Of a stretch of DNA of 64,000 nt, positions 1 through 63,790 are shown piece by piece (the stretch's first letter is position 1; each line of letters starts with the position of its first letter). Made by a program: the position numbers and the translations under genes. This DNA comes from Mobula hypostoma. Lineage: Eukaryota. Location: contig NC_086097.1 of NCBI RefSeq assembly GCF_963921235.1, forward strand, positions 25,856,001 through 25,920,000, given 5' to 3'. Under the pieces are notes generated by a model that saw nothing but the letters and a program-made list of their open reading frames with translations, was not told the origin of the DNA and made no database searches.

Positions 1-378
1 TACCCCTTCTCTTTCTTTCCATTCCCCATTCTGGATCCCTTCTCATCTGCCTATCACCTCCCACTGGTACCCCTCCTCCTTCCTTTTCTCCCATGGTCCA
101 CTTTTCTCTCCCATCAGATTCCTTCTTCAGCCATTTTCTCTTTCTACCTATCACCTCCCAACTTCTCACCATCCCACCCACCTACTTTCCCTCTTACCTG
201 CCTCACCTATCATCTTCCAGCTCGAGCTCCTTCCCCTTACCCCACCTTCTTCTTTCCCCTTCCTTTCCAGTCCTGATGAAGGATAGAACATCTCCATAGA
301 TGCTGTCTGATCTGCTGAATTCCTTCAGCATTTTATGTATGATACTCTGATTTTCCAGTATATTCAGATTCTCTTGTT
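1..378 (+). mobile_element. Penelope-like-derived repeat end (hammerhead region partly deleted)
   Basis: Pyrimidine-rich tract, then ccagtcctgatgaagg and tagatgctgtctgatctgctgaattccttcagcatttt; same family as 32465-32610 and 43530-44110. Confidence 0.65.
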
Positions 379-486
379 TCTATGTGTTGGTATAAATTGG
401 TGGTTGATAGCCAGAGGGACCCATTGGGCCAAATGGCCTGTTCCTGTTCCATGACTCTATAGCACACTATCATCTGATCTATTGTG

Positions 487-928: not shown

Positions 929-1146
929 AGCACAAGAGATTCTGCAGGTGCTGCAATTCCAGAGCAAAGCACACAAAATGCTGGAGGAAGTCAGCAGATC
1001 AGGCAACATCTATGGAGGGAAATAAGACCCTTCTTAGAACTGGAAAGGAAGGAAAGGGGAAGATGCCAGAATAAAACAGTGGGGGGAGGGGAAGGTGTAC
1101 TAGCTAAAAGATGATAGGCGAAGCCAGGTGGGTGGGAAAGGTGAGG
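929..1146 (-). mobile_element. Penelope-like-derived repeat end
   Basis: acacaaaatgctggaggaagtcagcagatcaggcaacatcta followed by a purine-rich tract. Confidence 0.6.
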
Positions 1147-20897: not shown

Positions 20898-23166
20898 GTG
20901 TATTCTACAAACATGGAGAGTGACGTAGTTAATTCAGAAACAAAGGTTCTGAACTTAAAGAGGGGTAACTTTGAAGGTATGAGACATGAATTAGCTAAGA
21001 TAGACTGGCAAATGACACTTCAAGGATTGACGGTGGATATGCAATGGCAGGCATTTAAAGGTTGCATGGATGAACTACAACAATTGTTCATCCCAGTTTG
21101 GCAAAAGAATAAATCAAGGAAGGTAGTGCACCCGTGGCTGACAAGAGAAATTAGGGATAGTATCAATTCCAAAGAAGTAGCATACAAATTAGCCAGAGAA
21201 AGTGGCTCACCTGAGGACTGGGAGAAATTCAGAGTTCAGCAGAGGAGGACAAAGGGCTTAATTAGGAAGGGGAAAAAAGATTATGAGAGAAAACTGGCAG
21301 AGAACATAAAAACGGACTGTAAAAGCTTTTATAGATATGTAAAAAGGAAAAGACTGATAAAGACAAATGTAGGTCCCCTGCAAACAGAAACAGGTGAATT
21401 GATTATGGGGAGCAAGGACATGGCAGACCAATTGAATAATTACTTTGGTTCTGTCTTCACTAAGGAGGACATAAATAATCTTCCAGAAATAGTAAGGGAC
21501 AGAGGGTCCAGTGAGATGGAGGAACTGAGCGAAATACATGTTAGTAGGGAAGTGGTGTTAGGTAAATTGAAGGGATTGAAGGCAGATAAATCCCCAGGGC
21601 CAGATGGTCTGCATCCCAGAGTGCTTAAGGAAGTGGCCCAAGAAATAGTGGATGCATTAGTGATAATTTTTCAAAACTCGTTAGATTCTGGACTAGTTCC
21701 TGAGGATTGGAGGGTGGCTAATGTAACCCCACTTTTTAAAAAAGGAGGGAGCGAGAAACCGGGGAATTATAGGCCGGTTAGCCTAACGTCGGTGGTGGGG
21801 AAACTGCTGGAGTCAGTTATCAAGGATGTGATAACAGCACATTTGGAAAGCGGTGAAATGATCGGACAAAGTCAGCATGGATTTGTGAAAGGAAAATCAT
21901 GTCTGACGAATCTCATAGAATTTTTTGAGGATGTAACTAGTAGAGTGGATAGGGGAGAACCAGTGGATGTGGTATATTTGGATTTTCAAAAGGCTTTTGA
22001 CAAGGTCCCACATAGGAGATTAGTGTGCAAACTTAAAGCACACGGTATTGGGGGTAAGGTATTGGTGTGGGTGGAGAATTGGTTAGCAGACAGGAAGCAA
22101 AGAGTGGGAATAAACGGGACCTTTTCAGAATGGCAGGCGGTGACTAGTGGGGTACCGCAAGGCTCAGTGCTGGGACCCCAGTTGTTTACAATATATATTA
22201 ATGACTTGGATGAGGGAATTAAATGCAGCATCTCCAAGTTTGCGGATGACACGAAGCTGGGTGGCAGTGTTAGCAGTGAGGAGGATGCTAAGAGGATGCA
22301 GGGTGACTTGGATAGGTTGGGTGAGTGGGCAAACTCATGGCAGATGCAATTTAATGTGGATAAATGTGAAGTTATCCACTTTGGTGGCAAAAATAGGAAA
22401 ACAGATTATTATCTGAATGGTGGCCGATTAGGAAAAGGGGAGGTGCAACGAGACCTGGGTGTCATTATACACCAGTCATTGAAAGTGGGCATGCAGGTAC
22501 AGCAGGCGGTGAAAAAGGCGAACGGTATGCTGGCATTTATAGCGAGAGGATTCGAGTACAGGAGCAGGGAGGTACTACTGCAGTTGTACAAGGCCTTGGT
22601 GAGACCACACCTGGAGTATTGTGTGCAGTTTTGGTCCCCTAATCTGAGGAAAGACATCTTTGCCATAGAGGGAGTACAAAGAAGGTTCACCAGATTGATT
22701 CCTGGGATGGCAGGTCTTTCATATGAAGAAAGACTGGATGAACTGGGCTTGTACTCGTTGGAATTTAGAAGATTGAGGGGGGATCTGATTGAAACGTATA
22801 AGATCCTAAAGGGATTGGACAGGCTAGATGCAGGAAGATTGTTCCCGATGTTGGGGAGGTCTAGAACGAGGGGTCACAGTTTGAGGATAGAGGGGAAGCC
22901 TTTTAGGACCGAGGTTAGGAAAAACTTCTTCACACAGAGAGTGGTGAATCTGTGGAATTCTCTGCCACAGCAAACTGTTGAGGCCAGTTCATTAGCTATG
23001 TTTAAAAGGAAGTTAGATATGGCCCTTGTGGCTACAGGGGTCAGGGGGTATGGAGGGAAGGCTGGGTTCTGAGTTGGATGATCAGCCATGATCATAATAA
23101 ATGGCGGTGCAGGCTCGAAGGGCCGAATGGCCTACTCCTGCACCTATTTTCTATGTTTCTATGTCT
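20898..23166 (+). mobile_element. Young 5'-truncated CR1 with uninterrupted 724-aa ORF2 (RT and C-terminus, no EN)
   Basis: ORF 20898-23072 with NYRPVSLT, YLDFQKAFDKVPH, PQGSVLGP, FADD; 3' UTR and (TTTCTATG)n tail. Confidence 0.93.
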
Positions 23167-24317: not shown

Positions 24318-24615
24318 TAAACACGAGATTCTACAGATGCCAGAAATCTTAAGCAACATACGTAAAATGCTGGAAGAACTCAGCAGGTCAAGCAGCATCT
24401 GTGGAGAGGAATTAACACTTGACATTTATGGCCAAAGTCCTTCATCGGGACTGGACAGAAAGGGGGCAGAAGCCAGAATAAGAAGGTGGGGGGAGGGGAA
24501 GGAGGACAAGCTGGCAGGTGATAGGTGAGACCAGGTGAGGGGGGGGAAGGTGGGTGGGTGGGGGTAGTAGGATGAAGTAAGAAGCTGGAAAGTGATGGGT
24601 GGAAGAGGTATAGGG
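24318..24615 (-). mobile_element. Penelope-like-derived repeat end
   Basis: aaaatgctggaagaactcagcaggtcaagcagcatc; degenerate hammerhead core at 24416-24452. Confidence 0.65.
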
Positions 24616-32464: not shown

Positions 32465-32610
32465 CTCCTTCCCCTCTCCCCACCTTATTCTGACTTCTGC
32501 CCCCTTCCTTTCCAGTCCTGATGAAGGGTCTGCTCCTGAAACATCAACTCCTTATGCATGTCCATAGATGCTGCCTGACTTGCTGAGTTCCTCCAGCATT
32601 TTGTGTGAAT
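32465..32610 (+). mobile_element. Penelope-like-derived repeat end with the best-preserved hammerhead-like core
   Basis: agtc CTGATGA agggtctgctcct GAAA ca TC aact (32514-32549), then tagatgctgcctgacttgctgagttcctccagcattttgtgtg. Confidence 0.7.
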
Positions 32611-33524: not shown

Positions 33525-35385
33525 AGACCATAAGACGGGCTTTTAAGACGGAGGAACAGAAGTAAGCTTTTGAGCCTGGTCCGCCATTGCATCATAGCTG
33601 ATTTATTGTTTCTCTCAACCCCATTCTCCTGCCTTCGCCTTGTAACCTTTAGAGCCCTTAATAATCGAGAATTTATCAACATCCACTTCAAGCATACCCA
33701 ATGACTTGGCCTCCACAGCTGTCAGTGGCAATGAATTCCACAGACTAAACCATCCTTTGGCTAAAAAAAATCCCCTCACCCCTGTTCTAAAGGGAAACCC
33801 TTCCAATCTGAGGCTGTGCCCTCTGGTTCTAGAGTCACCCACTATAGGAAACATCCTCTCCACATCCACTCTGTTTAGTCCTTTCAATATTCAATAGGTT
33901 TCAAAGATATACTCCCCTCATTCTTCTAAACTCCAGCCAGTACAGGCCCAATGCCATCAAACACTGTTCGTACGTTAATGCTTTTATAGCCGAGATCATT
34001 CTAATGAAACTCCAATGGATCCTTGGGAACTTGACAAGTCATAAAGAAATGTGGATACATTAGTCAGAAGTTAGCTCACGCTGAATGCAGTATGAGGTAA
34101 CATTTGGATGTGACAAACCATGCTGCACATGGTTCAGATAAAACCTCAGCCCAGTAGTACCATGTAAAGCAAGTTGAATACCAATCAATCCTGTCTAATT
34201 ACATCAGGAATAGGATCCTGTCTAATGACATCAGACTCCCAACACCCTGCTCACAATCAGTAGTCCCCGAGTGCCATTAAGTACTCAACGGATCAGACAG
34301 CACCCTACCAAGTGAGCAGGTTTAACCCTTCAAGTCCTGATGCAGAGTGTTGACCTGAAACATTGAGTACCCAATCTTAGAGAGTTTTTGGAGGAAGTTA
34401 CCAGGAAGGTTGAAGGCAAGGCTGTGGATGTTGTCTACATGTTCTTTGGCAAGGTCCCACATGGGAATTTGGTCAAGAAGGTTCAGTCATTTGGCATTTA
34501 GGATGAGGTGGTTATTTGGATTAGACATTGACTTTGCAGGAGAAGCTGCAGAATGGCTGTAGATGGCTGTCTCTCTGATTGGAGGCCTGTGACTGGTGGT
34601 ATGCCACAGGGAGTGGTAGTGGGTCCATTTTTGTTTGCCATCTATATCAATGATCTGGATGATAATATGGTAAACTGGGTCAGCAAATTTGCTAATGACA
34701 CCAAGATGTGAGGTGTAGCAGACCAGTAATGAAGGCTATCAAAGGTTGCAGCGGGATCTGGACCAGCTGGAAAAGTGGGCTGAAAAATGGCAGATGGAAT
34801 TTAATGCAGATAAGTGTGAGGTATTTCACTTTAGAAGGACAAATCAGGCCAGGACTTACACGGTGAATGGAAGGGCACTGAGGAGTGCAGTAGAACAGAG
34901 GGATCTGAGAATACAGATCCTTAATTCTTTGAAAGTGTCATCACAGGTAGCTAAGTTTGTAAAGAGAACTTCTGGCATATTGGCCTTTATAAATCAAAAT
35001 ATTGAGTACAGGGGTTGAGATGTTATGTTGAAATCGTATAAGACATTGGTGAGGCCTAATTTTGAGTATTGTGTTCGGTTCTGGTCACTAACCTACAGGA
35101 AACATATCAATAAGATGGAAGGAGTGCAGAGAAAACTTACAAGGATGTTGCCAGAACTTGAGGACCCGAATTATATAGAATAATTGTATAGGTTAAGACT
35201 TTATCCCCTGGAGTGTGAGAGAATGAGTGGAAATTTGATAGAGATGTACAAAATTTTGAGTGGTATAGATAAGGTAAATACTAGCATGCTTTTCCTCTGA
35301 GGTTAGCTGAGAGTAGAGCTAGAGGTCATAGGTTAAGGGTGAATGGTGAAATGTTTAAGGGGAACATGAAAGAGAACTTCTTCAC
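33525..35385. mobile_element. CR1 fragments (- 33525-34020; + 34370-35385)
   Basis: RVDVERMFPIVGDSRTRGHSLRL; QRDLDQLEKWAEKWQMEFNADKCEV. Confidence 0.8.
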
Positions 35386-38300
35386 AGAACCACACAGATG
35401 CTGCTCGGCCCACTGAGTTCCTCCTGCAGATTGGTTGTTGCTATTGTTTTAAATTATCAACTAGAACCTGGAGGTTAGAAATAGATGGCGCAAAAAATGT
35501 GAAGCAAACTGCAATGATGGACACTTGGAGAATCTGTTAGAGTTAAGCAGGGTAGAAACAGGCCCTTCAAATTCAGATTTATTTATCACAGGTATATCAA
35601 CCGTACGATGAAATGCATTGTTTGCCTTAACAACTGCCACACCCAAGGATGTGCTGGGGGAGGCCCACAATTGTCATACACATTCCGGCACCAACATGGA
35701 ATGCCCACGATGTTCCAGAGAACAATGCAAGCAGCCACAACAACAGAACAAAAGAACAACTGGAAAACAAGCCTCTTTCCCAAACACCCATCCCCTCACG
35801 CACACAGACAGTCTTTCAACCCCAGGACAGGCTGCCTCCAGTCCTTAGTCCCAGAAACACTGACTCGCAGACATTGTACCTCCAACCTCTGTCCCTGGCC
35901 TGAACTTGTAGACATGACCTTTGGCCTCTATCTCTGGATTCCGTGACTTCAATCTTTAGCCTCTCGGACTTTCTATCTCCGAGCTCCGATCACACATAGC
36001 TTTCCATTTTTCAATCATCCATACCTAGGAGTTTCTTAAATGTCCCTAATGTATCTGTATCTACCAAGTGGGCTGCCCCCTTCCATGTACCCACCACTTT
36101 CTGTGTAAAAGAATTTACCTCTGACATTCCCCCTAAACTTGCCTCCAATCACCTTTAAATTATGCCGCCTTTTATTTGCCACTCACATCCTGGGAAGAAG
36201 TCTCTGGCTATCCACTCAATCTGTGTCTCTATCAAGTTGCTTCTTATCCTGTTTTGCTCCAAAGAGAAAAACCCTAGCTTACTCAATCTGTGCTCATAAG
36301 TCATGCTCTCTAGTCCAGGCAGCATCCTGGTAAATCTCCTCTGCACCCTCTCTAAAGCTTCCACATCCTTCCTATAATGAGGCGACCAGAACTGAACACA
36401 ATATTCCAGTGCGGTCTAACCAGAGTTTTATAGAGCTGCAACATTACCTCATAGCTCTTGAACTCAGTCCCCCAACTAATGAAGGCCAACACTTTCTTAA
36501 CAACTCGATCAACCTGCACAGCAGCTTTGAGGGATCTATGGACATAGATGAATGTTTGAGTGAGTATGTTTCAAGAAAGAGTACACTTGCCACTCTCTGA
36601 GATCAGGTTAAATGTACTCATGAAAAAAGGTGATCAATGTTGGACACAGCTACGTCCCACCATCAGCAACAGTGGTTGGTAAAGCTGAAGACTGAACAAA
36701 TCTTAAAGATTGTCTATTCCAAAAGTAGTTTGCTGCATTTTGCATCAAATAGACAAAGTCTTTGCCATCCCGGAAAAAGAGATCAAATTGTGTTTGCACC
36801 TGGGTCCCATTTTTCCCTTGTCATCACCAGACCTCCAAAGCCTGGAAGTGTTCTCCGCACAGCTCAGAGCTCGCCGACCCATTGAAAGAGCGCAGTGAGC
36901 AACCAAGTCACAACGTTTAGTGCTTTCAGATTTATCTATCACATTTATGTAGAAACGTACAGTGAAAAGTACCATTTGCATTAACAACCAACACACCTAA
37001 CAACATGCTGGGGGCAGCCTGCAAGTGTCGCCACACACGCCGGTGCCAACACAGCATGCCCACAGTGTTCAGCAGAACAACACAGAACACAACACGCTAC
37101 ATAACGACAACGGCAGCAAAACAAGCCATTTTCCTCCCTCCCACCCAACCGGCAGTCCTCCAACTCCAGCCTTCTGACTTCCAGACTTCCAAACTGACCT
37201 TCGGGCTTCAACCTTTGACCCAACAAGAAGAAAGTCTGACCAGAAGGAGTCTGCTTCCATTGTGGAATGCTCACTGTTGCTCCCGTTCATCACAGGCAAT
37301 CCTAGGCAACGTTGCTTTTGGCAACCGGAGCAGCCTCATCCCACACTGAACTTAATTGGCTGCCAGTACAAACAAGTAAGACATCCACCTGACCTCAAGC
37401 TTCACTTTTTGGCCTGATGGATTAGGAAGGTGTCTGCTTCCCAATATTTACAGTAACTATTAACTTGAACACAGTCTTTTGACCACAAGCATGAGGGGAC
37501 ATGTATTTAGCCTAATCATGCTGCTTCTCCTTAGCTTCTGAAAGGCATTTTTCAACCAGGCTTTATAAGGCATTGGTTAGACCGCACTTGGAGGATTGTG
37601 AAGAGTTCTAAGCTCCATATTTAAGAAATGACTTGTTGGCATTGGAGAGGCTCCAAAGGAGGTTCACAGGAATGATCCTAGGAATGAAAGAGCTAACATA
37701 TGAGGAACATTTGATTGCTCTTGGCCTGTACTCACTGGTGCTGAGAATAATGAGGGGGAATCTCATTGCGACCTACCGAATATTGAAAAGTCTGGCATTA
37801 TCTACACGGCTGGAGTTATTGGAATGGAAAGGTGATAATGAAACTGCGTGTAGTGTAGGGCTGGAGGAGATTACAGAAATAAGGAGAGACGATGAGATTT
37901 AGAGCTGGCAGAACCCAAACTGAGCTTTGGTGAATGTGTTATTAATAATTAAGTACATCTTGGTGGAATTATTGACGAGACTTGGTGTCACTTTGCTGAT
38001 GATTAGGGTTGACCCAGAATGCTGTAGGAAGCCAGATTGAATTCATCCTTCCTTTTCATGGAACAGAGCATACCCATGCAAATTTCAACAGCTTTGGGTA
38101 GGTGTCAGTGTATAACTGCACTTGAACATTCTGGCTACCGGTGCGATTAGCTCCTGAGCAAAAGAACAAATTTCACGTCCTACGAGACAGTGGTGATAAG
38201 CCTGATTCCGATCGGGCACAGGTCTTCAGTATTATAACTGGGATGTTGTCTGGTCCTGCAGCCTTCATAGTATCCATAGCTCACAAAGAGGGAATTGAAT

Positions 38301-43529: not shown

Positions 43530-44110
43530 CAGAGCAACACCCACAAAATGCTGAAGGAGCTCAGCAGGTCAGGCAGCACCCACGGAGGGAATAAATAGTC
43601 AAAGTTTTGGGCCAAGATCCTTCATCAGGATGGGAAGGATGAGGGAAGAAGCCAGGATAAGTAACTGGGGGGTAAGGGGGGAAGGAGTACCAGCAGGCAG
43701 GTGATAGGTGCAGCCACGTGAGGGGGAAGTTGGGTGGGTGAGGGAGGAGGAATGAGGTGGTAGGTGGGAGAGGTACAGGGCTGAAGAAGAAAAAGATCTG
43801 ATAGAGGACAGTGGACAATTGGAGAAAGGACAGTGGGAGGACACGAGAGATAGGTGATGGACATGTGAAGAGAAGAGGTGAAGGGGGAGCCAGAATGCGG
43901 AGGTGGGGTGGTGGTAGGGAAGAGAAGGGAAGGAGGAGCAGGGAGAAATTACCAGAAGTTAGAGAATTCGGTAGGTTTATAAAAGACGTCAGTGGACAGT
44001 TTGTCTTCAGAGCTGGAGACAGAGGGATCAGGAAACAGGAGGGAGGTGTCAAAAATGCACAAGTGAATTTAGGAGCAGGGTGGAAGTTAGAGGCAAAGTA
44101 GATGAAATTG
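43530..44110 (-). mobile_element. Internally deleted Penelope-like element (RT remnant joined to terminal repeat)
   Basis: Minus-strand frames NFIYFASNFHPAPKFT and SEDKLSTDVFYKPT (PLE-type RT C-terminus), then pyrimidine tract, CTGATGA core at about 43597-43631 and the family terminus. Confidence 0.78.
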
Positions 44111-44189: not shown

Positions 44190-47081
44190 AGTCAATGAAC
44201 TGGACTGCAGCCTGGATCTGTACAGTGTGAAGTAGAACTGATCAAATAATCTGATGGAAATTGGTAAGTATGATGTCGTGGGAATAACAGAGACATGGCT
44301 TCAAGTGGACAGGGCCTGGGAAATGAATATTCAAGGGTATACGTCCTATCGAAAGGACAGACTGATGGGCAGAGGGGGTGGGGTGGCTCTGTTGGTGAGG
44401 AATGATATTCAGTCCCTTGCAAGGGATGACATAGAATCAGGAGATGTAGAGTCAGTATGGATAGAACTGAGAAATTCTAAGGGTAGAAAGACCCTAATGG
44501 GAGTTATCTACAGGCCCCCAAACAGTAGTCTGGATGTAGTGTGTAAGTTGAATGAAGAGTTAAAATTGGCATGTCGCAAAGGTAATGCTACAGTTGTTAT
44601 GGGGGACTTCAACATGCAGGTAGACTGGAGGAATCAGGTTGGTGCTGGATCCCAAGAAAGGGAGTTTGTGGAGTCCCTCCGAGATGGATTCTTAGAACAG
44701 CTTGTACTGGAGCCTACCAGAGAGAATGCAATTCTAGATTTAGTGTTGTGCAATGAACCGGATTTGATCAGGGACCTTGAGGTAAAGGAGCCATTAGGAG
44801 GTAGTGACCATAATATGATGTTTTAATCTACAATTTGAGAGGGAGAAGGGAAACTCGGAAGTGTCAGTATTACAGTTGAACAAAGGGAACTATGGTGCTA
44901 TGAGGGAGGAGCTGGCCAAAGTTCAATGGAACAATTCCCTAGCAGGGATGACAGTGGAACAGCAATGGCAAGTGTTTCTGGGAATAATGTGGAAGGTGCA
45001 GGATCAGTTTATTCCAAAGAGGAAGAAAGATCGTAAGGGGAGTAAGGGGAGGCCATGGCTGACAAGGGAAGTAATTGACAGCATAAAAATAAAAGAGAAG
45101 AAGTATAACATATCAAGGATGAGTGGGAAGCCGGAGGATTGGGAAACTTTTAAAGAGCAACAGAAGGTAACTAAAAGGGCAATATGTGGAGAAAAAATGA
45201 GGTACGAGGGTAAACTAGCCAAGAATATAAAGGAGGATAGTAAAAGCTTCTTTAGGTATGTGAAAAGGAAAAAAATAGTTAAGACCTAAACTGGGCCCTT
45301 GAAGACAGAAGCGGGTGAATTTATTATGGGGAACAAAGAAATGGCAGACGAGTTGAACAGATACTTTGGATCTGTCTTCACTAGGGAAGACACAAACAAT
45401 CTCCCAGATGTAATAGTGGCCAAAAGACCTAGGGTAATGGATGAATTGAAGGAAATTTATATTAGGCAGGAAATGGTGTTGGATAGGCTGTTGGATCTGA
45501 AGGCTGATAAGTCCCCGGGACCTGATGGTCTGCATCCCAGGGTACTTAAGGAGGTGGCTTTAGAAATCATGGACGCATTGGTAATCATTTTCCCATGTTC
45601 TATAGATTCAGGATCAGTTCCTGTGGATTGGAGGGTGGCTAATGTTGTCCCTTTCTTCAAGAAGGGAGGAAGAGAGAAAACAGGGAATTATAGACCGGTT
45701 AGCCTGACGTCGGCGGTGGGAAAGAAGCTGGAGTCAATTATAAAAGATAAAATTACGACACATCTGGATAGCAGTAACAGGATTGGTCCAAGTCAGCATG
45801 GATTTACGAAGGGGAAATCGTGCTTGACTCATCTTCTGGAATTTTTTGAGGATGTAACTATGAAAATGGACAAGGGAGAGCCAGTGGATGTAGTGTACCT
45901 GGACTTTCAGAAAGCCTTTGATAAAGTCCCACATAGGAGATTAGTGGGCAAAATTAGGGCACATGGTATTGGGGGCAGAGTACTGACATGGATTGAAAAT
46001 TGGCTGGCTGACAGAAAACAAAGAGTAGCGATTAACGGGTCCCTTTCGGAATGGCAGGCGGTGACCAGTGGGGTACTGCAGGGTTCAGTGCTGGGACCGC
46101 AGCTGTTTACAATATATATTCATGAATTAGATGAGGGAATTGAAAGTAACATTAGCAAATTTGCTGATGACACAAAGCTGGGAGGCAGTGTGAAATGTGA
46201 GGAGGATGTTATGAGAATGCAGGGTGACTTGGACAGGCTGGGTGAGTGGGCAGATGCATGGCAGATGCAGTTTAATGTGGATAAGTGTGAGGTTATCCAC
46301 TTTGGTGGTAAGAACGGGAAGGCAGATTATTATTTCAATGGAGTCAAGTTAGGAAAAGGGGAAGCACAACGAGATCTAGGTATTCTTGTACATCAGTCAC
46401 TGAAAGCAAGTATGCAAGTACAGCAGGCAGTGAAAAAAGCTAATGGCATGCTGGCCTTCATAACAAGAGGAATTGAGTATAAGAGCAAAGAGGTCCTTCT
46501 GCAGCTGTACAGAGCCCTGGTGAGACCACACCTGGAGTACTGTGTGCAGTTTTGGTCTCCAAATTTGAGGAAGGACATTCTTGCTATTGAGGGAGTGCAG
46601 CGTAGGTTCACAAGGTTAATTCCTGGGATGGCAGGACTGTCATATGTCGAAAGATTGGAGCGACTGGGCTTGTATACACTGGAATTTAGAAGGCTGAGAG
46701 GGGATCTTATTGAAACATATAAGATTAAGGGATTAGACATGCTGCAGGCAGGAAGCATGTTCCCGCTGATGGGTGAGTCCAGAACCAGAGGCCACAGTTT
46801 AAGAATTAAGAGTAGGCCATTTAGAACGGAGTTGAGGAAAAACTTTTTCACCCGGAGAGTGGTGGATATATGGAATGCTGTGCCCCAGAAGGCTATGGAG
46901 GCCAAGTCTCTGGATGCTTTCAAAAAAGAGATGGATAGAGCTCTTAAAGATAGTGGAATCAAAGGTTATGGGGATAAGGCAGGAACTGGATACTGATAGT
47001 GGATGATCAGCCATGATCACAGTGAATGGCGGTGCTGGCTCAAAGGGCTGAAAGGCCCACTCCTGCACCTATTGTCTATTG
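44190..47081 (+). mobile_element. Near-complete CR1 ORF2 (APE endonuclease + RT) with two disruptions
   Basis: EN: GITETWL, YRPP, MGDFN, LDLV, GSDH (44254-44826); frameshift near 44822; in-frame TAA at 45287-45289; 565-aa RT ORF with FADD; ctattgtctattg tail. Confidence 0.92.
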
Positions 47082-61108: not shown

Positions 61109-61746
61109 CACTCAGTGCTCTCTTTATTAGGTGCACCACTACAATTAATCCAAATATCTAATCAGCCAATCATGTGGCAGCAACTCAATGGATATAAGCA
61201 CACAGACATGGTCAAGAGATTCAGTTGCTGTTCAGACCAAACAACAGAACGGGGAAAGAGATGTGATCTAAGTGACTTTAACTGTAGAATGATTGCTAGT
61301 GCCAGACGGGGTGGTTGGAGTATCTCAGAAACTGCTGATCTCCTGAGGTTTTCCCACACTACAGACTGTTTTTGCACCATTCTCTGTACACTCCAAAGGG
61401 TATCCAGTGAGCAGTAATTCCACAGGAGAAAAGGCATTGTTAATGAGAGGTGAGGGGAGAATGGCCACATTAATTCAGCTGACAGGAAGGCAACAGTAAC
61501 TCAAATAACAACATGTTACAACAATAGTGAGCAGAACAGCATTTCTAAATGCCTGAAACGTCGACTGCACCTCTTCCTGTAGATGCTGCTTGGCCTGCTG
61601 CGTTCACCAGCAACTTTGATGTATGTTTCTAAATGCACAACCCGTTAAACCTTGAAGAGGATGGGGTGCTGCAGAAGACCATGAACATACACTCAGGGGC
61701 CACTTTATTAGATATAGGAGGTACCTAATAAATTGGCCACTAAGTG
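61109..61746 (+). mobile_element. Internally deleted Tc1-like transposon
   Basis: TA|CACTCAGTG..CTTTATTAGGT ... ACCTAATAAATTGGCCACTAAGTG|TA; transposase N-terminus GKRCDLSDF..MIASARRGGWSISETADLLRFSHTT. Confidence 0.85.
61553..61625 (+). mobile_element. 73-bp Penelope-derived insert with 11-bp TSD
   Basis: tttctaaatgc at 61542-61552 and 61626-61636; insert begins ctGAAACGTCGACT. Confidence 0.8.
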
Positions 61747-62629
61747 TAGGTACACAATGTATAATGAGAACTTATTTTGCAGTGCTCAATGGCTTTTTCC
61801 AGAAGAGTTCATGATTTGCAAATAACTGCAAGTATTATCTCCAGCATACAGTGCTTTAATGAAAATTAAAACTGCAATTTCTCTATAATCTAACCCACCC
61901 GCATACACTCAAACCTCTATAATTCATACAAATCTAGTCTTGTATGAAAATTTTAAATGTTCAATAGATACCTAATTTTCCAGTCCGTTTACCTTTTGGG
62001 GAGTCTTCCTAAATCAGGAGGCAAATGCAAGGCTTTAATGTGAAAAAGGCTGGAACCACAAAACTGCAAATAAGCTTAATGCTGTCAGTTCTGATTAGAG
62101 ACCAGCTCCAGAAAAACCTGGCCCACAGTATTTGCCTTAGAAAGCAAACCACTTACAAGTCAACAGAATAACTTTGCTCATGCCCAGAAATTGGGTAAGA
62201 TTTCCAAACTCTAAATTCCATAAGTTCCCATCTCAGATTTTTTTGCAGAGTTAAAATAAACCAACCCTTCTCAGGTTCTGAAACGTATGGTCAATAACAG
62301 CCAAGATGTTTCCACTCACTTTGTGAATCTCAGAATAAGCTGCTGCTATTCAGCACATAGCAAGTGAAACTGTGTCCTCTGATGAGTTGGACACTGCCTG
62401 CCAGATGGTTCTGTTTGTTTTAATTGTGGAAGTTTCTTTTTATAAACCTTCCTGTGCTAATACAAATTCAATAAATAGTATAAATATATCAAACAAAACA
62501 CAGCATCCAAAATCCTCTGAATAAAGTGTCACGAGTTAGGACTACCCGTACACGATTACTCGCTCAAAAGACCTTATGCAGAACTAATCCACTACTTCAT
62601 GTGATCATGCACTAACCATAATTCCTTAA

Positions 62630-63335: not shown

Positions 63336-63631
63336 CTAGGAGAGAATCAGAATAGACGATTAACCCACTTAAAATCAATTTCCACAAATCAATCAAGCCC
63401 AGTTAAATGGTGCAGTACACAAAGACACTCACAATATATGCCCTACAATCCTCAGAATCTTCCATTCCTCCTCTCTGCTCCCTCAAGCATTCCCTTTCCA
63501 ACCACCACTAATAACTGTGGTTTCAATTGCCACCGCCCTAGTCTGGAATTCCTATCTTGACCTCTCCGATGCCCAACGTTAACTGTTATATGGCTGATTA
63601 CACATATACAAAGCATCTTATTGAATTTCTA

Positions 63632-63790
63632 AACACAAGAGATTCTGCAGATGCTGGAAATCCAGAGTAACACAAAAAGTGCTGGAGAAACTCAGCAGGT
63701 CAGCAGCATCAATGAAAAGGAATAAAAAGCTGTGTTTTGGGCAGAGACCTTTAATCAGGACTGGAAAGGAAGGGTAGGAAGCCAAAATGA
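63632..63790 (-). mobile_element. Penelope-like-derived repeat end
   Basis: acacaagagattctgcagatgctggaaatccagagtaacacaaaaagtgctggagaaactcagcagg; degenerate core at 63727-63764. Confidence 0.65.

Follow-up and report, generated by a model that had tools for sequence, protein, structure and literature searches.

Minimal hammerhead ribozymes (min-HHRs) occur in the pLTRs of metazoan Penelope-like elements (PLEs), where the G10.1-C11.1 pair is called highly conserved (PMC4209133), and cleavage of such hammerheads as dimers has been described (Lunse et al., via PMC6765202). In PAc, a Poseidon element of Anolis carolinensis, two internal reverse transcription start sites, which bound the tail, have been measured (Frangieh et al. 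2024, PMC11167929). Craig et al. 2021 give a CX2-5CxxC linker for Neptune and Nematis (PMC8557442), and a preprint reports that Neptune and Poseidon are found in vertebrates and that non-LTR retrozymes occur in one chondrichthyan (bioRxiv 10.64898/2026.07.22.740005). Statements about these sources refer throughout to the excerpts of them used for comparison.

Here we analysed a 64-kb stretch of genomic DNA (the window), in which a first-pass annotation had recognized a dispersed, Penelope-derived repeat family with a minimal hammerhead. The repeats are very probably 5′-truncated, mostly decayed pLTRs of an autonomous, likely Neptune PLE, for whose minimal type I hammerhead cutting is predicted solely in the dimer or when protein assists. 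In its layout the motif is the min-HHR of PLEs as described in 2014, a kind already known, and in the features examined the family agrees with an EN+ PLE carrying a min-HHR; it is not novel in kind. Its value lies in its scale, with at least 48,612 intact motifs and young intact parents, which form a natural data set for the role of the PLE hammerhead and for the origin of tails and inverted pLTRs. The highest count met in the excerpts of PMC4209133 is about 9,000, in Xenopus.

Like the min-HHRs of PMC4209133, the motif is of type I, lacks loop III and has a palindromic 15.2-16.2, an extra nucleotide between 9 and 10.1 and a helix I of 4-5 bp; copies are mostly solo and dispersed, with some close pairs on opposite strands and few full elements. 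It differs in a helix II of just 4 bp and in the 10.1-11.1 pair, which is G10.1.U11.1 in the dominant young and A-U in the older subfamily. No cartilaginous fish is named in the text or the searched supplement of PMC4209133. A title and abstract search returned no description of the family in sharks or rays, and Repbase or Dfam may already hold it.

PAc (PMC11167929) resembles the family in having two 3′ sites downstream of the hammerhead, a hammerhead at the pLTR-ORF junction and uncleaved RNA as the presumed main template. It belongs to another clade, and its frame starts inside stem II, whereas the frame here starts about 55 nt after the cut. Long/short head-to-head pairs and a pile-up of 5′ ends, both described below, were not found in the excerpt of the PAc account, and a title and abstract literature search returned nothing on point about twin priming in PLEs. 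Metazoan non-LTR retrozymes (bioRxiv 10.64898/2026.07.22.740005) share the type I hammerhead and the derivation from PLE pLTRs, but they are head-to-tail tandem units without an ORF, whereas copies here are single, head-to-head or ORF-attached. With Neptune EN+ PLEs (PMC8557442) the family shares a C-terminal GIY-YIG, the CX2-5CxxC linker, a CCHH motif, DKG, partial tandems, an adjacent inverted 5′-truncated copy, a 30-40-bp tail at one end only and a hammerhead near the 3′ end. Unlike them, it has clear 9-15-bp target duplications, and no microsatellite targeting was evident in the junctions listed.

Family fragments in the window

Fifty genomic copies supplied a profile, which was searched against the window and, as a control, against the reversed window. 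It recovered nine fragments, where about eight copies had been claimed; their E values run from 1.5e-38 to 7e-5, and the reversed window gave nothing better than 0.13. All seven cores of the first-pass annotation were found again at their positions and on their strands; the profile matches at 968-1083(-) and 35379-35437(+) were absent from that list. The fragments and the parts of the focal motif are as follows.

32465..32606, + strand: focal copy, an old-subfamily pLTR fragment with pyrimidine tract, hammerhead motif and downstream segment to the short 3′ end (E 1.5e-38)
32514..32549, + strand: damaged min-HHR of the focal copy, read from the sequence and compared with the subfamily profile
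5′ half of the focal min-HHR, + strand: stem I 5′ arm, 32514-32517; CTGATGA, 32518-32524; extra A, 32525
3′ half of the focal min-HHR, + strand: stem II, 32526-32537; GAAA, 32538-32541; TC, 32544-32545; stem I 3′ arm, 32546-32549
After 32545, + strand: predicted cut of the focal min-HHR
173..379, + strand: old copy; an internal deletion left the motif without GAAA, cleavage site or 3′ arm of stem I
932..1143, - strand: old copy, absent from the earlier core list; core damaged, 3′ half of the motif deleted (E 4.3e-18)
24319..24572, - strand: old copy within an intron of the TSHR-like gene and antisense to it; CCGATGA and TAAA stand in its core
34326..34373, + strand: weak, divergent, motif-only fragment; core reads CTGATGC (E 7.3e-5)
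35379..35437, + strand: divergent fragment with only the segment downstream of the motif (E 2e-5)
43530..44099, - strand: old copy with an RT remnant; damaged motif at 43597-43631, RT remnant at 43966-44099
61553..61627, + strand: young-subfamily stump that starts 10 nt before the cleavage site and stops at the short 3′ end; antisense, inside an intron of the TFIIA-like gene
63630..63788, - strand: old copy whose core has become CTGATTA and which has lost GAAA and the cleavage triplet

None of the nine fragments has a fully intact motif, and an Rfam scan of the window returned no hammerhead family at E<=10. The claim that every copy in the window is damaged was right about the motifs and needs one amendment, as the 61553 copy is young and 5′-truncated rather than decayed. 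In the focal copy, which is 84-88% identical to its best genomic relatives, the core letters survive; two G-to-A changes at CpG sites hit the helix-III palindrome (ACGT to ACAT) and the first stem-I pair, and stem II is damaged too. As far as sequence can tell, the damaged end fragments of the window are likely inert.

The reported join between the 43.5-kb copy and an RT remnant held up: 43966-44099(-) is 75% identical to the RT region of a full-length element (E 8.5e-19) and contains LSTDVFYKPT. A deletion of ~720 bp removed the linker and GIY-YIG region and joined the remnant to the pLTR, leaving 433 bp between motif and RT anchor, compared with about 1,120-1,160 bp in 5 of 19 other loci. 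The 61553 stump is 96-97% identical to the full-length element at locus L114 and is flanked by an 11-bp target duplication (61542-61552 and 61626-61636). Family density is 140 per Mb in the window and 333 per Mb in 132 kb of flanks, which are biased towards repeats; extrapolation from both would put the 3.48-Gb genome at very roughly 0.5-1 million pLTR fragments.

Full-length parent element

A protein search of the genome gave 49,719 candidates, and the 144 scored matches include stop-free frames of up to 1,058 aa. Twenty loci, chosen for long frames, were examined. Frames of 1,058, 1,058, 1,039 and 1,018 aa carry YIDD and LYIG, and the full-length ORF is a single frame with RT, a CX4CxxC linker and a GIY-YIG at the C terminus, set between motif-bearing pLTRs, as the proposed Penelope-like origin leads one to expect. 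Genomic loci found via the RT remnant of the window show the order RT, GIY-YIG, motif, and the motif lies ~300 bp past the ORF in 20/20 long-frame loci. Tandem pLTR copies, suggested earlier as a check, were found at three of these loci (L114, L115 and L119) as direct pLTRs, 97.7-98.8% identical and with a motif in each. At L114, direct repeats of 218 bp (98.6% identical) flank a 1,039-aa frame; the repeats measure 244 bp at L119 and 922 bp at L115. Four further loci (L117, L121, L122 and L123) have an inverted pLTR upstream.

The element protein contains DKG, YIDD, CKRNKCYTC (923-931), a CxxC before LYIG, His 988 and His 1004, and its linker and CCHH motif are laid out as in Neptune1_Nv. Pfam matches to RVT_1 (E 4e-5 and 2e-6) and, in one of two proteins, to GIY-YIG (E 0.0099) all lie under the curated cut-offs. 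Protein homologues number 1,629 at E<=1e-20, the best named one being from Chiloscyllium (72%), by which the genome is likely that of a shark or ray. The parent is likely a Neptune-clade EN+ PLE, a placement made by motifs: its linker type is given for Neptune and for Nematis, which shares it (PMC8557442), and Neptune and Poseidon are found in vertebrates (bioRxiv 10.64898/2026.07.22.740005).

Frames and pLTRs indicate an autonomous element that was active recently and of which the vast majority of copies are truncated; the short copies are its 5′-truncated stumps. The short copies are 5′-truncated or inverted pieces, about 96-100% identical to ORF-bearing elements. The idea of a separate, mostly non-autonomous family had to be abandoned; in its place stands an autonomous element, of which many copies keep a long ORF. 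Short copies lack autonomy in no more than a trivial sense, being truncated pieces of their parent. Since the core motif was found genome-wide, and RT and GIY-YIG in full-length relatives, those absences that could be examined as evidence against the first-pass reading did not arise.

The stop-free frame begins ~55 nt past the cut. At L114, about 55-140 nt past the cut, a short frame running through the ribozyme overlaps the candidate main-ORF ATG in a TGATG stop-start arrangement, which could couple translation. The N-terminal, Pro/Ser-rich part of the ORF has tandem duplications at L113, L115, L124, L129 and L130, some of them frame-keeping; they are about 212 bp long in four loci and consist of multiple shorter units in L113.

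Hammerhead motif and its subfamilies

Two exact 34-nt motif patterns matched the genome 7,638 and 40,974 times, and their reversed controls 0 times; high copy number and the layout read earlier, with the ACGT palindrome as helix III, are both borne out by this count. The intact motif consists, in order, of stem I, CUGANGA, the extra A, a stem II of 4 bp, GAAA-C-G-UC and the other arm of stem I.

In a set of 77 old copies, conservation was 83-99% at most positions and only 48-61% at 6 of the 8 positions of four ancestral CpGs, confirming CpG decay of old copies. The extra A was A in 76 of the 77, and the free core position N7 varied (U46/A15/C13). The earlier attribution of damage to consensus CpGs applies to these old copies and does not by itself account for CCTGAAA, whose T is fixed in the largest of the young subfamilies (40,974 versus 7,638 exact copies), with the other CpGs intact. 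The loop, first read as TCTTGG, becomes TCTCGG after CpG correction.

Subfamilies differ at sites that hammerheads tolerate, namely N7 (U, A, C), loop II, the outer stem I pair (C-G to U.G) and 10.1-11.1 (G-C to G.U). The last is G-C in the middle-aged subfamily, G-C in the old one after CpG correction, G.U in the dominant young and A-U in the oldest; pairing is kept across subfamilies and base identity is changed. No subfamily examined departs from the invariant core letters, the extra A or the palindrome, while loop II, N7, N17 and the flanks vary.

For covariation, a pattern fixing only the 5′ arms was used and one fixing both arms was left out; the first 30 of 165 matches were taken. Among these, in an older subfamily with a longer loop, A stands opposite AGTT in 10/12 copies; chance mutants of the main family have it in 4/18 (Fisher P=0.002). 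In the older subfamily, moreover, U is the partner of A10.1 in 12/12 copies and N17 is U in 12/12. Stems I and II thus covary between subfamilies, as had been proposed for checking, through two double changes between two subfamilies, one of which needs CpG correction on the main-family side; independent events are few. This older subfamily is known from motif copies, its joining to an RT ORF being presumptive. When four sequence runs of other organisms were aligned to an old copy, the differences lay for the most part at CpG and N7, and the stems gave no new covariation.

All subfamilies retain a TGCTG/CAGCA inverted repeat, with a changing loop, at +33..+55 from the cut (32580-32599 of the window). 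It sits just ahead of the short reverse transcription start site and may be a protein-binding hairpin.

Two lookalikes were set aside. A search for a second family with an AGCU palindrome gave 725 matches against 175 in the control, and most of the 100 matches listed had no stems. A repeat at L131 and L228 has CTGATGA and GAAAGCT at hammerhead spacing and no stem I; it is probably a chance match.

Ends and pairing of young copies

A pattern lying downstream of the ribozyme matched 25,716 times, and the first 100 matches listed served as our sample of young copies; nearly all of them come from the first 10 Mb of one contig, a regional bias. Their 3′ ends fell near +65 (48 copies) or +102 (50) from the cut, 37 nt apart, with 2 elsewhere. 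By their 5′ ends, 40 copies reached -325 or beyond, 7 began in -324..-61, 44 in -60..-18, 2 in -17..-1 and 7 in 0..+12. The cut was crossed by at least 3 nt, uncut, in 93 of the 100.

The 83 loci contained 39 head-to-head junctions, of which 31 had two classifiable 3′ ends and 8 did not. One long and one short arm were joined in 30 of these 31 pairs (P=3e-8 against 0.5), and in 21 the 5′ ends of the two arms lay within 25 nt of each other. The pairs are mostly enclosed by a 9-14-bp target duplication and make up about one-third of the sampled insertions. Long/short pairing is predicted alike by priming from both nicked strands and by fold-back of the first cDNA. Close motif pairs seen were mostly of this head-to-head kind, with motifs on opposite strands, so that no dimer is possible within one RNA. 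Head-to-tail tandem units with a complete hammerhead and no ORF were found neither in the window nor among the 100 young copies.

These ends fit the explanation that we favour. Reverse transcription would begin within the RNA, at one or the other of two sites that lie just downstream of the ribozyme, as in PAc, on a template that would be mostly uncleaved. It would then run off at the RNA 5′ end, set by a pLTR promoter, or stall at the folded ribozyme, yielding stumps of 90-160 bp, and rare longer templates would give full-length tandem copies. Selection would maintain the stems in the master lineage, and inserted copies would drift neutrally, decaying mainly at CpG. Against this, a cleaved and re-ligated circle would also yield copies that cross the cut; the clade is assigned by motifs, covariation events are few, the window copies are Rfam-negative and the motif shows no stability beyond that of shuffles.

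A pLTR promoter or stalling of the reverse transcriptase may lie behind the accumulation of 5′ ends ahead of the ribozyme. A promoter in the pLTR is known for Penelope. It is possible, though doubtful, that the short copies form a SINE-like mini-element, a pLTR transcript of ~100-150 nt headed by the hammerhead and mobilised by the protein of the parent. The 44 young copies that start at -60..-18 include 6 direct insertions with a clear target duplication; TCAGTT at about -38 is initiator-like; and in 4/4 runs of unrecorded type the summed depth of contigs on the pLTR exceeded that at the ORF start several hundred-fold (contig depth is no measure of copy number). However, the 5′ ends are scattered across more than 40 nt with a gradual transition to full length, short copies are near-identical to ORF-bearing elements, and stalling at a hairpin explains the same 5′ peak. 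Such a transcript is compatible with truncation of an autonomous parent, as a sub-mechanism of it.

Two minor 5′-end clusters, at -326..-364 and -414..-455 (8 and 7 of the 100 copies), lie near the ORF stop, and a gap in the 5′ ends spans the pyrimidine-rich 3′ UTR. In the L114 pLTR and at 32495-32515 of the window, a branch-point-like sequence, a pyrimidine tract and a CAG come directly before stem I, a layout that recalls the D. virilis intron ending at helix I; these letters are initiator-like as well. Some EN+ PLEs have a spliceosomal intron in the pLTR or 5′ UTR; here, an intron ending at that point found no support: 0 of 146 genomic motif copies showed a spliced junction before stem I, and none of the 15 joints listed of 115 was a GT-AG joint ending there.

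Genome-wide, 122 junctions lay exactly at the cut, compared with 61 at +5 and 73 at -5. Inversions, several with stem I microhomology, accounted for 18/30 of those inspected at the cut, 12/20 at +5 and 18/20 at -5, and plain flank junctions for 9/30, 6/20 and 2/20, which scale to about 37, 18 and 7. One insertion flanked by a target duplication (L155) begins at the first base after the cut. This twofold excess weakly suggests that some template RNA is cleaved, in well under 1% of copies, and to that extent it counts against a template that is never cut.

An account that joins these strands is rather unlikely to hold. The youngest burst, of more than 40,000 copies, would have come from a master with a tuned-down hammerhead (G.U at the base of stem II, and C7 locking a dead hairpin); most insertions would stem from a short capped transcript starting just ahead of the ribozyme; both nicked strands would be primed, one per reverse transcription start site; and copies starting at the cut would record germline self-cleavage. 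The excerpts compared from the PLE hammerhead literature contain no in vivo observation of this kind.

We consider it improbable that the ribozymes in both pLTRs cut efficiently in vivo, with the unit RNA ligated to a circle and pLTRs made by more-than-unit reverse transcription (Cervera and de la Pena 2014). Full-length copies do exceed one unit by a variable upstream overhang (218, 244 and 922 bp), and a ligated junction has the same sequence as an uncut one, alongside the slight excess of 5′ ends at the cut. In PAc, however, ribozyme mutants left insertion in vitro unchanged, and RNA-seq yielded no reads with a start or end at the cut (PMC11167929). Moreover, the most successful subfamily has the weaker stem II, and a circle leaves the pile-up ahead of the ribozyme unexplained.

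Predicted folding of the motif

In the monomer, GACG pairs with CGUC in the minimum free energy fold, whose advantage over the hammerhead-like fold is 4.0 kcal/mol for C7 and 2.2 kcal/mol for U7. The isolated motif does not exceed shuffles in stability (z from -0.1 to -1.2), the palindrome duplex is predicted at -1.7 kcal/mol, and stem II is weaker in the dominant young subfamily (-2.3 versus -3.9 kcal/mol). A single motif would accordingly be modelled as a catalytically inactive hairpin with its core paired to the cleavage site. The folding agrees with reports that motifs of this kind have low activity or depend on protein, cleavage itself being a prediction.

From this hairpin one could argue that the motif no longer works as a ribozyme here and is retained as a hairpin or binding site beside the reverse transcription start sites. 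Ninety-three of 100 copies are uncut, the G10.1-C11.1 pair, highly conserved according to the 2014 paper (PMC4209133), is gone from the dominant subfamily, and Naiads spread without canonical hammerheads (PMC8557442). We nevertheless think this a rather unlikely outcome: the invariant core, extra A and palindrome persist in every subfamily examined while neighbouring positions change, and the related PAc motif cleaves once protein is added (PMC11167929).

That the hammerhead likeness is a chance match in an unrelated repeat such as a SINE, as the missing Rfam hit and the damage to all window copies might suggest, is exceedingly improbable and contradicted by the full-length pLTR anatomy, with the motif in both terminal repeats of intact PLE ORFs, by the compensatory stem changes and by the published lamprey and cichlid min-HHRs, which share the extra A and CGUC (PMC4209133 supplement).

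Host genes and neighbouring features

The window holds a TSHR-like gene (best PDB match, thyrotropin receptor, E 2.7e-188) and a TFIIA subunit 1-like gene, and the focal copy lies between their coding ends. Intronic copies had been proposed for both genes. This holds for the 24416 copy, between two TSHR-like exons, and for the 61553 copy, between two TFIIA-like exons, and is probable for those at 269, 968 and 63727. Sense-strand copies near genes in the window have broken cores; intact sense-oriented intronic copies elsewhere in the genome could in principle cut host pre-mRNA.

Long LINE-type frames (AP endonuclease and RT) lie at 45290-46993, 44242-45286 and 20898-23069 (+), and such fragments dominate the window. 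At 61685-61751, 58 bp from the young stump, a hairpin gives a sub-threshold Rfam mir-9256 match on both strands (43.5 bits, gathering 80) and is probably a small inverted-repeat element.
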